Shown here in pieces: positions 4,646 to 49,220 of a stretch of DNA of 64,000 nucleotides. Position 1 is the first letter of the stretch, and every line of letters begins with the position of its first letter. The stretch is from the NCBI GenBank assembly GCA_964507665.1, contig CAZDPT010000003.1:3210-67209 (forward strand), read 5' to 3'. Below the pieces are notes generated by a model, which was not told the origin of the DNA, searched no databases, and saw only the letters and a program-made list of their open reading frames with translations. The translations under genes and the position numbers were made by a program. Origin of the DNA: an uncultured Candidatus Saccharibacteria bacterium (lineage in GTDB: Bacteria > Patescibacteriota > Minisyncoccia > Minisyncoccales > CAYZYK01).

Positions 4646-5272
4646 TTATATTAATTTAAAAGATTTCCTATGAATAAAACAAGTGTTGTATTTTTTTATC
4701 ATCTTCCGGTGTAATTTCGTTCCATAACCTTTGTGTTTGTTAAAATTATATTCAGGGTGTTTTTTATGATAACGAATCATCGTTTTGTCCCTTTCTACTT
4801 TAGCTACAATTCCCGCTACCACACAAGAGAAAATTTTCTCATCACCTCTAATAATCAACTTATGATTATTTTGTTTAAGCTTTTTATTTCCTAAAAATTT
4901 ACCGTCTATTAATAAAAAAATAGGGTTACTTTTATTAAATTTTCTTAGAGCTCTCAACATTGCTAATTCTGCTGCCGCTTTTATATTAATTTTATCAATT
5001 GTATTTTGAAAAACTTTAGCAATCTTATACTCCACTCCAGGATTCTCTTTTATTTTTCTATAAATCTGTTTTCTTTTTTTTGAAGTAATCTTTTTAGAGT
5101 CTCTCAAAACCAAATTAAGTTTTTTAAGTTGAACTCTTTCATTTTGTTTTAAAAAAACAGCTGCAGCAACTACCGGTCCTGCCAGAGAACCTCTCCCTGA
5201 TTCGTCCAATCCAAAAACTTTAGAGTATCCCTTTTTCCATAATTTTTTTTCTTGTTCTAAATTAATTCGCAT
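4646..5272 (-). CDS. rnhB: ribonuclease HII
   Basis: DESGRGSLAGPVVAAAV catalytic motif; 208 aa. Confidence 0.9.
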   Translation of the reverse strand: MRINLEQEKKLWKKGYSKVFGLDESGRGSLAGPVVAAAVFLKQNERVQLKKLNLVLRDSKKITSKKRKQIYRKIKENPGVEYKIAKVFQNTIDKINIKAAAELAMLRALRKFNKSNPIFLLIDGKFLGNKKLKQNNHKLIIRGDEKIFSCVVAGIVAKVERDKTMIRYHKKHPEYNFNKHKGYGTKLHRKMIKKYNTCFIHRKSFKLI

Positions 5273-27692: not shown

Positions 27693-27706
27693 ATTTTTAA
27701 AATATG

Positions 27707-27780
27707 CGGGGACGACCGGACTTGAACCGGCAACCTTCGCTGTGACAAAGCGATGATCTATCCAATTGATCTACGTCCCC
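27707..27780 (-). tRNA. tRNA-Asp (GTC)
   Basis: Canonical cloverleaf read by hand: GGGGACG acceptor, TTGTCAC anticodon loop, GCCGG-TTCAAGT-CCGGT T-arm, discriminator G. CCA is not encoded. Confidence 0.9.
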
Positions 27781-27826
27781 TTATAATTATGAATTCTTGT
27801 TATGAAAAATTATCACCCAGCCCATA

Positions 27827-27901
27827 TGCCGGTGGTGGGATTCGAACCCAACGACCTAAGCCTTATGAAGACTCCGCTCTAAACCTCTGAGCTACACCGG
27901 C
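27827..27901 (-). tRNA. tRNA-Met or tRNA-Ile2 (CAT), elongator type
   Basis: GCCGGTG/CACCGGC acceptor with G1-C72, D-arm GCTC-AGAGGTTTA-GAGC, anticodon loop TTCATAA, T-loop TTCGAAT. CCA is not encoded. Confidence 0.85.
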
Positions 27902-27944
27902 ATCAGCGAAGTAGTTTTAATCTTACCTCGCAAAATAAAATATG

Positions 27945-28015
27945 TCGCGCCGTCTGGAATTGCACCAGAGCCTCGAGCTTATGGGACTCGCGAGGTACTA
28001 CTCCTCCACGGCGCT
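27945..28015 (-). tRNA. atypical tRNA (CAT), possibly the initiator tRNA
   Basis: The cloverleaf folds but has an A1xG72 mismatch, an A11:U24 pair, anticodon loop CCCATAA (C33), T-loop TGCAATT, D-loop AGTAGTA and a 4-nt variable loop. See findings. Confidence 0.6.
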
Positions 28016-46374: not shown

Positions 46375-48153
46375 TTATTTAAGAATAGCTTTTATTCTTC
46401 TTACTCCTGCTGAAGATGATTCTTCTTTTATGATCTCAAACTCTCCCAGCTTAGAGGTATTTTTTACATGAGGTCCTGCACAAACCTCTTCTGAAAAATC
46501 TCCAATAGAATAAACATTTACTTTATCAGGATAATCAGCTCCAGGAACAGTAAGAGCACCAGATTCTAAAGCTTGCTTTAAGGGTACCTCTCTTTTTCTA
46601 ACTTTCAAACTCCCTTCTATCTTCTGGTTCACCAAATCTTTAACTTTTTTAATTTCCTCATCAGTTAATTTTTGAGGATGTGAAAAATCAAATCTTAATC
46701 TTTCTGCATTAATATCAGAGCCTTTCTGTCTTACATGTTCCCCCAAAACTTCTCTCAGGCCTGCTTGTAAAAGATGGGTAGCGGTGTGAAGTTGAATTAC
46801 TTTCTTTTTCTCTTTTTCTGTTTTAGCTTGCTTTATTCCTACTCCCCCAAATTTTTTCTCAATTCCTGCTCGAGAAACTTGTTTGTGTTTCCGAAGAGCT
46901 TTTTTAAATCCTTTCTTATCAACCTTTTTGTTTTGTCTTTTAGCTAACTCTTCAATAAACTCTAATGGGACCCCATAAGTAGAATATAAATGGAAGGCCT
47001 TTTCCCCAGGCAGAATCTCATTAACATTTGAGATCTCTGAGGTAGTCTCTTTTATCCCTTGCTCCAAGGCCTGCTCAAATTTCTCTCTTTCTTTTTGAAC
47101 AACCGTTAAAATGTCAGTTTGTTTTGATTTAACTTTAGGATAAGAATCTTTGTAAATTTCAATTACTTTCTTTACCAAAGGAATTAAAAACCCCTCGGGC
47201 AATTCCAATAATTTACCAAACCTTATTGCTCTCCTTAAAACTCTTCTTAAGATATAACCTTCTTCAATGTTTGAAGGCAAAACATCATCTGAAATCAAAA
47301 AAACAGCACCTTTAACATGATCTGCAATAATTCTCTTTTTTTGGATATTTTCTCCCTCTGAAATTTCTATTTCTTTAATAATTGGTTGAAATAAATCGGT
47401 TCCAAATACTGAATCTTTTTCTTGGGAAACCATAGCTAATCTTTCCAAACCAGCCCCCGTATCTACTCCTTGCTGTTTCAGTTTTTCTAACTTACCATCC
47501 CCTCTTTTATTATATTGATTAAACACTAAATTCCAAAGTTCAATAAACCGACCACAATCACAATTGGGAATACATTTTTTACCTCTCTTACAGGGCATCT
47601 TAGTTAACTCATAATGAATCTCACAAGTGGGTCCACAGGGTCCTGTTTTTCCGGTAGGACCCCAAAAATTATCCTCCATTCCAAATTCTGAAATTCTCTC
47701 TTCGGGAAAACCTAAATTTTTAATAATCTCTTTTGATTCCAAATCTTTTGGAACCAGAGAAGGTTTTTTAACTCCTTTAAATATTGTAAACCACAATTTT
47801 TCTCTTTTAAAACCTATCTCTTCTGTTAAAAACTCAATTGCATATTCTATTGCCTCTTCCTTAAAATAATCACCAAAACTAAAATTTCCCAGCATCTCAA
47901 AAAAAGTAAGGTGAGTACTATCCCCTATCTCTTCAATGTCTGAAGTTCGGAAACATTTCTGTGAAGAAGCGACTCTATTACCATAGGGTGATTTTTTACC
48001 CAAAAAATAATCTTTGAATTGCTGCATTCCAGCGGTAGTCAACAAAACAGAAGCATCAGGGGGTAAAAGAGAACTTGAAGAGACTATAGTGTGTCCCTTT
48101 TTCTCAAAAAAATCTAAAAACTTTTGTCTTAATTCAAAACCAGTAAAACTCAT
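46375..48153 (-). CDS. alaS: alanyl-tRNA synthetase, short form ending after the editing domain (no C-Ala domain)
   Basis: N-terminus ELRQKFLDFFEKKGH, class II core, and editing-domain motifs HTATHLL and CAGPHV...GVRRIKA; 592 aa. Confidence 0.92.
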   Translation of the reverse strand: MSFTGFELRQKFLDFFEKKGHTIVSSSSLLPPDASVLLTTAGMQQFKDYFLGKKSPYGNRVASSQKCFRTSDIEEIGDSTHLTFFEMLGNFSFGDYFKEEAIEYAIEFLTEEIGFKREKLWFTIFKGVKKPSLVPKDLESKEIIKNLGFPEERISEFGMEDNFWGPTGKTGPCGPTCEIHYELTKMPCKRGKKCIPNCDCGRFIELWNLVFNQYNKRGDGKLEKLKQQGVDTGAGLERLAMVSQEKDSVFGTDLFQPIIKEIEISEGENIQKKRIIADHVKGAVFLISDDVLPSNIEEGYILRRVLRRAIRFGKLLELPEGFLIPLVKKVIEIYKDSYPKVKSKQTDILTVVQKEREKFEQALEQGIKETTSEISNVNEILPGEKAFHLYSTYGVPLEFIEELAKRQNKKVDKKGFKKALRKHKQVSRAGIEKKFGGVGIKQAKTEKEKKKVIQLHTATHLLQAGLREVLGEHVRQKGSDINAERLRFDFSHPQKLTDEEIKKVKDLVNQKIEGSLKVRKREVPLKQALESGALTVPGADYPDKVNVYSIGDFSEEVCAGPHVKNTSKLGEFEIIKEESSSAGVRRIKAILK

Positions 48154-48195
48154 ATGATTATTTTAACTTCTCTTCTTTATAAAATCAAATAAAAA

Positions 48196-48540
48196 TGAAA
48201 AGTCCCCACTTCGCGGAGCGGAGACTCGAGTCCTGCTCAGAGCAGGACAAAAAGAAGAACGAATGGACAGTGCGGTTTATCGCTGGCTCCACATGGTCGG
48301 GGTCAAATACCCCTGCTCAGCGATTAACCTTCGCCTATATCAGGTGGATTCCCTCCCCATCTACGGGCTTTCTTTTTACCCTCCGGGTTGGGCCTGATAC
48401 AGCGGCCCTCGTTTCTTTTATTTGTTGCGACCTATCCTCGTTTTTGAGAAACTCTTCTGGAACCCAATCCAGTAAGAAATTCCTCTCGCAAAGATAGGAC
48501 CGGCTCCTCGCCACTGTCCATTGGACTGATTACCTTTTCG
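48196..48540 (-). ncRNA. unclassified GC-rich structured RNA / alaS 5' leader element (strand assignment tentative)
   Basis: 176 G+C in 340 nt (48201-48540) versus 17/60 in the next 60 nt. Multiple nested helices include an 11-bp perfect long-range helix and a pseudoknot. A consensus promoter lies upstream on the minus strand. See findings. Confidence 0.6.
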
Positions 48541-48598
48541 CACCTAACTTACCTTTCTCTATTCTCTATTATCCTTCTCTTTTAAAGACAAACAATTT

Positions 48599-48608
48599 AA
48601 TGGACAGT
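48599..48608. repeat. 10-mer AATGGACAGT, second copy (first copy 48262-48271; exact reverse complement at 48513-48522)
   Basis: Exact matches read directly from the sequence. Confidence 0.9.
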
Positions 48609-48648
48609 AACAAGAATTTATTGTAAAGAACTATACTTTACACTTTCT

Positions 48649-48677
48649 ATTGTATCATATTATGTATTTCTTGTCAA
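48649..48677 (-). promoter_or_regulatory. consensus sigma70 promoter driving the structured RNA and alaS
   Basis: Minus strand: TTGACA (48677-48672), 17-nt spacer, TACAAT (48654-48649). Confidence 0.6.
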
Positions 48678-48704
48678 GGGTTCCTAAAATAGTGTCGTCT
48701 GAAA

Positions 48705-49220
48705 TTATGTAAATCTATCAGCTACCACCGAAGCAGCAAAAGCTTCGGGTTTAATTTTAGCTTCAAAACCGTTACTTTTAATCAATCCTACTACTTCTTT
48801 TATCATATCTCTCGTCTTCCCGTGTTTGCCAACATCAGCGTGAATGTGTTGAAATTGATAATCAAGGTTTAAAGTAGAATCTCTAATTTTCTTCTGAAGA
48901 GATTCCTTCAAAGACAAAGCTAACTCACAAGATAGTAACACTTCTTGTAAAACCCTCTGGTGAAAGTTAGAAAACTTCTTTTTTTGAGAAGGATATTTTA
49001 CTCTTTTAAGAAAAAACCTTCCTCCAGTTCCAACTCGTAAAACAACTACAGCCACAGGAAATGATACTTTATCTCCAGAACAAGAATCACACCCAACTAC
49101 AACATCATAAAATTTATTAGGTTTTTCTTTCATATAATTAAAAATTTCTCCAGTTACTTTACTGAATTTAAGATCTCCACGGGTAGGGTTATAAAAATGT
49201 CCGTCTTCAAACTTACTCAT
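48705..49220 (-). CDS. YkuK/DUF458-like protein (RNase H-like fold family)
   Basis: 171 aa. The pattern YDVVVGCDS...HADVGKHGKT...EAKIKPEAFAASVVADRFT matches my memory of B. subtilis YkuK-type proteins. Confidence 0.55.
   Translation of the reverse strand: MSKFEDGHFYNPTRGDLKFSKVTGEIFNYMKEKPNKFYDVVVGCDSCSGDKVSFPVAVVVLRVGTGGRFFLKRVKYPSQKKKFSNFHQRVLQEVLLSCELALSLKESLQKKIRDSTLNLDYQFQHIHADVGKHGKTRDMIKEVVGLIKSNGFEAKIKPEAFAASVVADRFT

Follow-up and report, generated by a model that had tools for sequence, protein, structure and literature searches.

A 64,000-nt stretch of contig CAZDPT010000003.1 from an uncultured Candidatus Saccharibacteria bacterium (hereafter, the window, with positions counted from its first nucleotide) carries, between a gene for a DUF458/YkuK-like protein and the alanyl-tRNA synthetase (AlaRS) gene alaS, a minus-strand element that we read as the gene for a structured RNA. 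Our preferred explanation, to which we assign a probability of roughly one-half, is that the element is a clade-restricted, stand-alone gene for a structured RNA in a Paceibacteria-type lineage of the candidate phyla radiation (CPR) and that the body of this RNA is predicted to close only after the 5' strand of a hairpin has been removed or bypassed. The analysis shows a structural signal and its strand, promoter and terminator motifs, the lack of a match to known families, the distribution among relatives, a conserved hairpin, and a predicted bistability; we infer the transcription of the RNA, its processing, and any function that it may have.

Under this explanation, an RNA gene would have been inserted between the DUF458/YkuK-like gene and alaS. 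Its minus-strand transcription would begin near 48642, at a consensus promoter, and end near 48190, at an intrinsic terminator, to yield a primary transcript of ~450 nt; a separate promoter just downstream would serve alaS. As long as the transcript is complete, a segment here called B would be held in a hairpin with 33 positions on each strand, leaving the GC-rich body open. Once the 5' strand of this hairpin is lost, either by endonucleolytic cleavage of the long duplex (e.g., by RNase III, as a putative trigger) or because transcription starts internally, segment B would pair with a segment C far downstream, closing a body of ~260 nt as a compact domain with two 3' hairpins after it. The process would amount to a maturation-gated refolding of a stable RNA.

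The RNA is present in three genomes: that of the window, that of a sister species whose AlaRS is 74% identical to the window's, and that of a third relative represented by contig L088 (AlaRS identity, 64%). The RNAs of the window and of the sister species align end to end by nhmmer (E = 4.6e-25), the GC content of the RNA is kept at ~50% while the genomes have 32 to 34% GC, and the 5' hairpin is kept in all three species; because homology of this strength persists at an AlaRS identity of 74%, together with the retained GC content and hairpin, we take the RNA to be under selection. The minus strand of positions 48645-48190 folds with a predicted energy of -163.8 kcal/mol (z = -6.7 versus dinucleotide shuffles), and the homologous region of the sister species reaches z = -8.1; over the shorter interval 48190-48550, the z scores are -4.7 for the minus strand and -3.35 for the plus strand.

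The element had been described in an earlier, sequence-only reading as a GC-rich, pseudoknotted RNA of ~345 nt serving as a leader of alaS. The observation itself is confirmed, and its interpretation is partly supported. The fold energies given above bear out the view of a genuine structured RNA, and the GC spike is exactly as claimed, with G+C making up 176 of the 340 nt at 48201-48540 and 17 of the 60 nt that follow. Per 100-nt window, GC runs from 0.50 to 0.56 in the RNA region versus a 64-kb mean of 0.32, and the region is the longest and highest GC spike of the whole window. Every fully paired helix drawn by hand (the 11-bp helix, the hairpin of 7 bp, the 7-bp helix that encloses GGGGT/ACCCC, the GGGCC/GGCCC hairpin, and the 6-bp helix) is perfectly complementary where that reading had placed it. 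The length of ~345 nt leaves out a conserved, AT-rich 5' part that contains both a small 5'-terminal hairpin and the 33-position hairpin.

The probable transcription unit

The minus-strand promoter singled out in the sequence-only reading, TTGACA-17-TACAAT at 48677-48649, is real (Table 1). The transcript predicted to start from it opens with a small hairpin, the 15-nt core of which (AAAGUAUAGUUCUUU) shows no difference in the sister species. At the other end, where no terminator had been recognized, we did find one: a GC-rich hairpin at 48227-48200, followed by the U-tract UUCAUUUUUAUUU, that sits before alaS. In the sister species it is almost unchanged, differing by U-G to U-A and G-U to A-U, and the terminator and the sequence from there on to alaS are the most conserved parts of the element. 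Its arms also decide the fate of two long-range helices that had been proposed. The outer closing helix at 48197-48205 joins two segments that are complementary, but it uses the 3' arm and U-tract of the terminator, conflicts with better-supported pairings, and lacks a counterpart in the sister species; the pseudoknot of 48215-48221 with 48500-48507, although likewise complementary, uses the 5' arm of the terminator, conflicts with conserved hairpins, and has no sister counterpart either. We reject both.

The same changes bear on the question of strand. In the 8-bp hairpin that precedes the terminator (Table 1) and that is likewise almost unchanged between the two species, the sister species has a G-U in place of the terminal G-C pair, together with an altered loop, and that G-U would be an A-C on the plus strand. 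We take the minus strand to be the RNA strand because the hairpin changes (U-G/U-A, G-U/A-U, and G-C/G-U) are neutral only there; the earlier preference for the minus strand is thus upheld, with G-U pairs becoming A-U in the relative and the covariance model scoring higher on that strand. The 100-codon open reading frame (ORF) of the opposite strand (48195-48497, plus) has no Pfam match, and its counterpart in the sister-species contig L082 resembles it only within the 3' hairpins. The RNAs of the window and of the sister species share no conserved small ORF, and the element is, as judged from these comparisons, non-coding.

The alaS gene appears to have a promoter of its own. TTGATT-17-TAAAAT, with the same hexamers, the same spacer, and the same distance to the ATG (6 to 7 nt), occurs in five loci (the window, L082, L015, L069, and L094), and in three of them (L015, L069, and L094) the promoter is present and the RNA absent. 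There is no Shine-Dalgarno sequence between this promoter and the ATG, and alaS is probably transcribed from it as a leaderless or nearly leaderless mRNA. Because a terminator ends the RNA and alaS has its own conserved promoter, we regard the RNA as a separate unit, and the element looks like a stand-alone transcription unit of ~450 nt (48642 to ~48190) rather than a 490-nt leader. At the level of motifs, it combines a promoter, an intrinsic terminator, and the lack of a conserved ORF, as expected of a stand-alone bacterial small RNA gene. The proposal of a ~490-nt alaS leader runs against the terminator, against the separate alaS promoter, and against the lack of the RNA in syntenic relatives; an ancestral alaS leader is disfavored because relatives would be expected to have the RNA.

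The 5' hairpin and its competing pairings

The best-supported element of the RNA is a long hairpin that occupies its AT-rich 5' part and that the sequence-only reading had missed. In an alignment of the three species (A3, from which the window's 46-nt loop was trimmed and for which the structure was derived from the same three sequences), pairing extends to 92.9% of cells, and both sides have changed in 9 of the 33 pairs, whereas controls in which the strands were slid give 31 to 57% pairing. A covariance model built from this alignment scores 74 to 91 bits on the RNA strand versus 32 to 42 on the other strand; for the window, model R1 gives a minus-strand score of 73.9 bits and a plus-strand score of 32.5 bits. 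Sequence is conserved at the apex (UUGUCUUU / AA(A/G)G(A/G)UA). As to the earlier suggestion that relatives be compared for conservation, the RNA occurs in three genomes and its long hairpin shows both-side changes; the helices of the body are not conserved one for one.

The loop of the window's hairpin (48538-48583, minus) contains degenerate AAAGGUAA repeats. They include three degenerate tandem copies of the motif of the 3' strand (AAGGAUAAUAGAG, AAAGGUAAGUUAGG, then AAAGGUAAUCAGUCC), which misled nhmmer into aligning the strand of the sister species with the wrong copy. In the rest of 1.3 Mb from relatives, the covariance model matches just two long hairpins, one in L009 and one in L104, and both more weakly (E of about 0.01 to 0.03, which are rough values). 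Both (L009 4636-4734 and L104 1329-1406) are near-perfect hairpins of ~17 bp that lie directly downstream of DUF458, with the RNA body absent; in L009, a 48-codon Lys/Arg-rich ORF is present at 4759-4905.

Within the long hairpin, segment A of the 5' strand pairs with segment B of the 3' strand, and segment B is also complementary to segment C at the far end of the body, which has the same sequence as A (Table 1). The A:B pairing extends to 18 bp and includes many G-U pairs; the B:C pairing is the 11-bp helix noted earlier. Because segment B is common to both, A:B and B:C exclude each other. In the full transcript, the predicted probability of A:B is 0.98 for the window and 1.0 for the sister species and that of B:C is 0 in each, and forcing B:C to form is predicted to cost +10 kcal/mol in the window and +8 kcal/mol in the sister species. 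Without the 5' strand of the hairpin, the predicted probability of B:C rises to 0.95 in the window and 1.0 in the sister species; the 11-bp helix is predicted only for an RNA that lacks its first ~85 nt.

The sister species has its own perfect B:C pairing of 10 bp (GGUAGACAGG / CCUGUCUACC). We had considered reading the B:C helix as three compensatory changes and rejected this, since the covariance-model alignment puts the registers of the two species 7 nt apart; by this comparison, the B:C complementarity is re-established across species rather than held by strict covariation. The body between the two segments changes quickly: it aligns to that of the sister species at low posterior probability, and, with B:C enforced, the two bodies give different sets of helices, with correspondence limited to the A-rich linker and the hairpin domain next to C.

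Table 1. Elements of the proposed RNA gene and the putative alaS promoter, in window coordinates
Feature	Position	Strand	Remarks
Sigma-70-type promoter TTGACA-17-TACAAT	48649..48677	-	11/12 matches; TG ahead of -10; transcription start probably near 48642
Small 5'-terminal hairpin UGUAAAG-UAUAGUU-CUUUACA	48622..48642	-	Minimum-energy fold prediction
Long 5' hairpin	48505..48616	-	5' strand 48616-48584, 46-nt loop 48583-48538, 3' strand 48537-48505; 33 positions per strand
Segment A, ACUGUCCAUU	48599..48608	-	Within 5' strand of long hairpin; same sequence as segment C
Segment B, AAUGGACAGUG	48512..48522	-	Within 3' strand of long hairpin; complementary to A and C
GC-rich body	48273..48504	-	Constrained fold; predicted long hairpin 48502-48428, A-rich linker, domain with 12-bp stem 48404-48332, hairpin domain 48329-48274 abutting segment C
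Segment C, CACUGUCCAUU	48262..48272	-	3' strand of 11-bp long-range helix B:C
8-bp hairpin GUCCUGCU-CUG-AGCAGGAC	48230..48248	-	Conserved in sister species
Intrinsic terminator	48186..48227	-	11-bp hairpin GAGUCUCCGCU...AGUGGGGACUU, then UUCAUUUUUAUUUG; kept in sister species
Putative alaS promoter TTGATT-17-TAAAAT	48160..48188	-	9/12 matches; 6 nt before alaS ATG (48153)

Distribution, known RNA families, and rival explanations

The distribution of the RNA was assessed over 43 fetched loci with a DUF458-alaS gene pair, plus those of the window and the sister species. Genome and metagenome contigs were scanned with AlaRS as the anchor (160 loci fetched), and these scans and 12 exact-protein look-ups identified carriers only in L082/L001, which belong to the sister species, and in L088. 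Among 5.8 billion protein clusters, a single AlaRS (P0002, 74%) is more than 65% identical to that of the window, and its Logan contig, L082, holds the complete homologous RNA. In most of the 43 loci, DUF458 abuts alaS or lies less than 125 nt from it, and several of the larger gaps hold protein genes; the 562-nt non-coding spacer of L088 (a JGI contig) is the only comparable one besides those of the window and the sister species. Because most DUF458-alaS pairs abut, we interpret the RNA as an insertion in one clade. The AlaRS of the window is the nearest relative of the L088 AlaRS in its match list, and the three carriers plausibly form one clade, with the RNA having been inserted in their ancestor. 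Scanning metagenomes with the conserved pattern of the 3' hairpins returned 0 matches.

The site between DUF458 and alaS is occupied in other ways in other relatives, by mnmA, by small ORFs, or by a duplicated alaS fragment. The last of these (L085 2340-2500) is a copy of a 5' coding fragment of alaS, roughly ...ELREKFLGFFEKRGHKIVP..., which lies in the DUF458-alaS spacer and is followed by a terminator-like hairpin. In the sister species, a further unit of ~450 nt is present between DUF458 and the RNA (L169 3560-4045, and also L170); it has a TG-extended TTGACA-17-TATAAT promoter and folds with z = -7.3, has no match in Rfam, and is absent from the window. Some 60 nt near its 3' end (CCCTCTATTCCAGAGAAATTCTAGAG...) resemble L088 1958-2019.

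Comparison to Rfam 15 confirmed that the RNA fits no known family. At the gathering score, the whole window yields only three tRNAs, all of them elsewhere, and searches with relaxed filters at E<=10 of stretches of 306 to 651 nt, covering both the window RNA (48100-48750 and 48240-48545) and the sister RNA (L082 1-500), return nothing relevant; the significant match to an Rfam family that the sequence-only reading had allowed for was not found. In all, three sub-regions of the window and two relatives were searched at E<=10, with no relevant match. Loci of 13 relatives with GC-rich stretches contain only tRNAs and one group I intron by the same database. The intron (RF00028, 52.3 bits) is situated at L049 3219-3449, in a tRNA cluster near alaS of a more distant relative. 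No tmRNA is detected by ARAGORN, at default or 70% thresholds, or by Rfam. Attempts to fit the signal recognition particle (SRP) RNA domain IV, tmRNA, T-box, or RNase P RNA by hand gave partial resemblances that either are not conserved between the two species or have no pairing partner. A sponge of the CsrB/RsmZ type was rejected since GGA / ANGGA motifs are not enriched (12 GGA in the window RNA versus 11.0 +/- 2.4 in shuffled sequences and 9 versus 7.6 +/- 1.9 in L082).

T-box leaders (RF00230) are alike in lying upstream of an aminoacyl-tRNA synthetase gene, in measuring a few hundred nucleotides, in ending in an intrinsic terminator, and in having alternative pairings. Unlike them, the RNA of the window has no UGGN bulge and no antiterminator that overlaps the terminator, and nearly all syntenic relatives lack it. 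The T-box covariance model has no match at E<=10 in the three stretches searched, and at the place where inspection finds CUGGUAACCGC in L082, the window has GCGAUAAACCGC; in both species, this strand is predicted to be paired within the body beside segment C and not with an arm of the terminator. As for a T-box acting in cis and conserved among relatives, the element does lie upstream of alaS, but there are only 3 carrier genomes and alaS has its own conserved promoter.

RNase P RNAs of CPR bacteria deserve separate mention, as Lui et al. (2021) described diverged ones that fall below Rfam thresholds and that RF00010 recovers at low scores (PMC8172020). These share with the window RNA a CPR host, a length of ~300 to 400 nt, and being missed at default Rfam thresholds, but they keep conserved features and a low-scoring match to RF00010 (PMC8172020), and neither was found for the window RNA. 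Neither RF00010 nor RF00011 matches at E<=10 in the stretches searched, and a P4 helix of CR-I (GGAAAGUCC) and CR-V (ACAGAA...) could not be drawn by inspection. Only GAAAAGTCC, at 48197-48205 on the plus strand, looks like CR-I; it is the terminator's 3' arm and U-tract in reverse complement, and it has a partner on neither strand.

Orphan large structured noncoding RNAs (ncRNAs), such as raiA, OLE, ROOL, and GOLLD from the Breaker/Weinberg surveys, were found as GC-rich intergenic regions in AT-rich genomes. The window RNA presents the same signature, along with its own promoter and terminator and a strong predicted structure; it differs in matching none of them in Rfam 15, in its far narrower distribution, in its poorly conserved body, and in its 5' hairpin, a competitor of the closing helix. 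No described family includes it, although structured orphan ncRNAs from GC-rich intergenic regions are familiar as a kind. There are also resemblances to the leader-trailer helices and boxA leaders of rRNA operons (PMC10250234 and PMC5725501), namely, a strong promoter, a leader that pairs with the flank of a GC-rich RNA, a duplex suited to RNase III, and a boxA-like UGUCUUUAA. Set against those systems, the enclosed RNA is not rRNA (no Rfam match), the duplex is a local hairpin instead of one between leader and trailer, and the boxA match is imperfect. The boxA consensus is GYUCUUUAANA (PMC5725501), and the strings UUGUCUUUAAAA (window), UUGUCUUUAACAA (L082), and UUGUCUUUUAUAA (L088) match it only after a 1-nt deletion. 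None of the CPR loci fetched contains an rRNA gene.

Several explanations compete with a stand-alone RNA gene. The element might instead be a cis-acting regulator of alaS and of the downstream infA, rpsM, rpsK, and rpsD, in which the state of the A:B and B:C pairings sets whether transcription stops at the terminator or reads through, the trigger being tRNA-Ala, AlaRS, or Nus factors acting at the boxA-like sequence. Its location immediately upstream of an aminoacyl-tRNA synthetase gene, its ending in a terminator, and its mutually exclusive pairings, a hallmark of attenuators, all suit such a regulator, as do the exceptional conservation of the stretch from the terminator to alaS and the apex UUGUCUUUAA, which is kept in the three species and resembles boxA (PMC5725501). 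We nonetheless hold this explanation to be unlikely, if worth serious consideration: neither inspection nor a duplex scan of segment B revealed an alternative pairing that disrupts the terminator at homologous positions, nearly all syntenic relatives do without the element, and the T-box model finds nothing at E<=10. The boxA likeness depends on the deletion noted above, and the window shows no enrichment of the 9-mer. Moreover, the promoter of alaS lies 6 to 7 nt from the ATG without a Shine-Dalgarno sequence, so that read-through transcripts would probably be translated poorly. Far removed from regulation is the possibility that the spacer is fast-evolving intergenic DNA, a nonfunctional or selfish insertion such as the remnant of a mobile element or a duplication-prone locus. 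The variability of the site among relatives (mnmA, small ORFs, and the duplicated alaS 5' fragment), the extra structured unit that the sister species has (~450 nt, with a separate consensus promoter), the three degenerate motif copies in the window's hairpin loop, the fast sequence turnover of the body, and the breaks of independent assemblies at the locus would all fit. Such an insertion is improbable, in our view, given that both lineages retain a high GC content and very low fold energies in otherwise AT-rich surroundings, that the 33-position hairpin has compensatory changes over three species, that B-C complementarity has been re-established in both species, and that the window contains no other copy and that no transposase or recombinase is among the six neighboring proteins scanned.

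Segments B and C also form a perfect inverted repeat of 11 bp (48512-48522 and 48262-48272, 239 bp apart), raising the prospect of a DNA-level element, i.e., an invertible segment or a recombination site. The B-C pairing is Watson-Crick only in both species, assemblies break in the region, and the size is typical of invertible promoter segments, for which a few hundred base pairs is the rule. The many G-U pairs of the extended A:B pairing would, by contrast, be mismatches in DNA. In addition, no contig seen across species and assemblies has the opposite orientation, nhmmer aligns the RNAs on the same strand only, the overlaps of L083 and L177 match the window, and none of the six neighboring proteins scanned is a recombinase, all of which renders inversion very improbable. 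Last is the idea of an extremely diverged universal RNA (RNase P RNA, tmRNA, SRP RNA, or 6S RNA), which the size, the strong promoter, and the terminator would suit, as in a housekeeping RNA, and for which the CPR RNase P RNAs reported below Rfam thresholds offer a precedent (PMC8172020). It is largely refuted and retains next to no probability: searches of short stretches from two species with relaxed filters give no Rfam match at E<=10, ARAGORN finds no tmRNA at 70% thresholds, no P4 helix with CR-I and CR-V can be drawn by inspection, and divergence beyond detection by nhmmer, together with a differing helix layout, would be unexpected at AlaRS identities of 64 to 74%.

The stand-alone RNA gene that we prefer has evidence to contend with as well, and the following points weigh against it. 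Its distribution is narrow, with only three carrier genomes, and L088 shares only the 5' hairpin and the overall layout, with an nhmmer similarity that is not significant; a duplex scan of L088 found no strong B:C pairing. The B:C helices of the two species lie in registers of the hairpin strand that differ by 7 nt, which does not constitute strict covariation. Since body helices are not conserved one for one, the structure of the body may matter only loosely. The hairpins of L009 and L104, at the same syntenic spot, may indicate that the hairpin is older than, and independent of, the RNA body. The position upstream of alaS and the terminator at the end also fit a cis-regulator.

If a stand-alone RNA gene is what the locus holds, it would be of interest on several counts. 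Hardly any ncRNAs have been studied by experiment in the CPR/Patescibacteria, the genomes of which are tiny, and the RNA of the window is a candidate for a new RNA family; its self-competing pairings would provide a concrete example of RNA folding gated by processing. As to what such an RNA might do, a CPR-clade RNA gated by its own 5' hairpin could be a maturation-controlled riboregulator or a ribonucleoprotein scaffold or, as a variant, a Nus/boxA antitermination leader that couples alaS to ribosomal-protein genes, all of which we put forward as a rather unlikely speculation. The locus is also an annotation trap: it looks like the leader of an aminoacyl-tRNA synthetase gene, yet alaS appears to use its own promoter. 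These points can be generalized only so far, given a very narrow distribution (three genomes, all derived from metagenomes) and a body that is poorly conserved.

Gene neighborhood and other features of the window

The genes around the RNA are arranged in the order secY-adk-map-galT-like-tpiA-DUF458 (PF04308), then the RNA, alaS, and a gene for a 411-aa protein. Beyond the latter there is a gap, at a spot where relatives have infA, and then rpsM-rpsK-rpsD. Neither a second copy of the RNA within the 64-kb window nor a transposase or recombinase among the six neighboring proteins scanned was found. The independent Logan contig L177 shows the same order of DUF458, promoter, and RNA. Several independent assemblies end inside the RNA locus or at its edge, in the species of the window (L083, L084, L176, and L177) and in the sister species (L001/L081, L082, L169, and L170), and L083 and L084 have the same starting point, precisely the -35 box (48678). 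These breaks may stem from low coverage or from heterogeneity among strains.

Two other features of the window lie far from alaS. A tRNA cluster, Asp(GTC), Met(CAT), and Met(CAT), lies on the minus strand at 27706-28015. On the plus strand, at 1160-1780, there is a 790-nt stretch without a long ORF, with a TTGACA-type promoter near 1164, a GC-rich part at 1468-1756, and flanking terminators. Rfam matches there are at chance level only, and the GC-rich part can be read by eye as an ORF of ~86 codons (ATG at 1467); this second GC-rich stretch is probably part of that ORF rather than an RNA.

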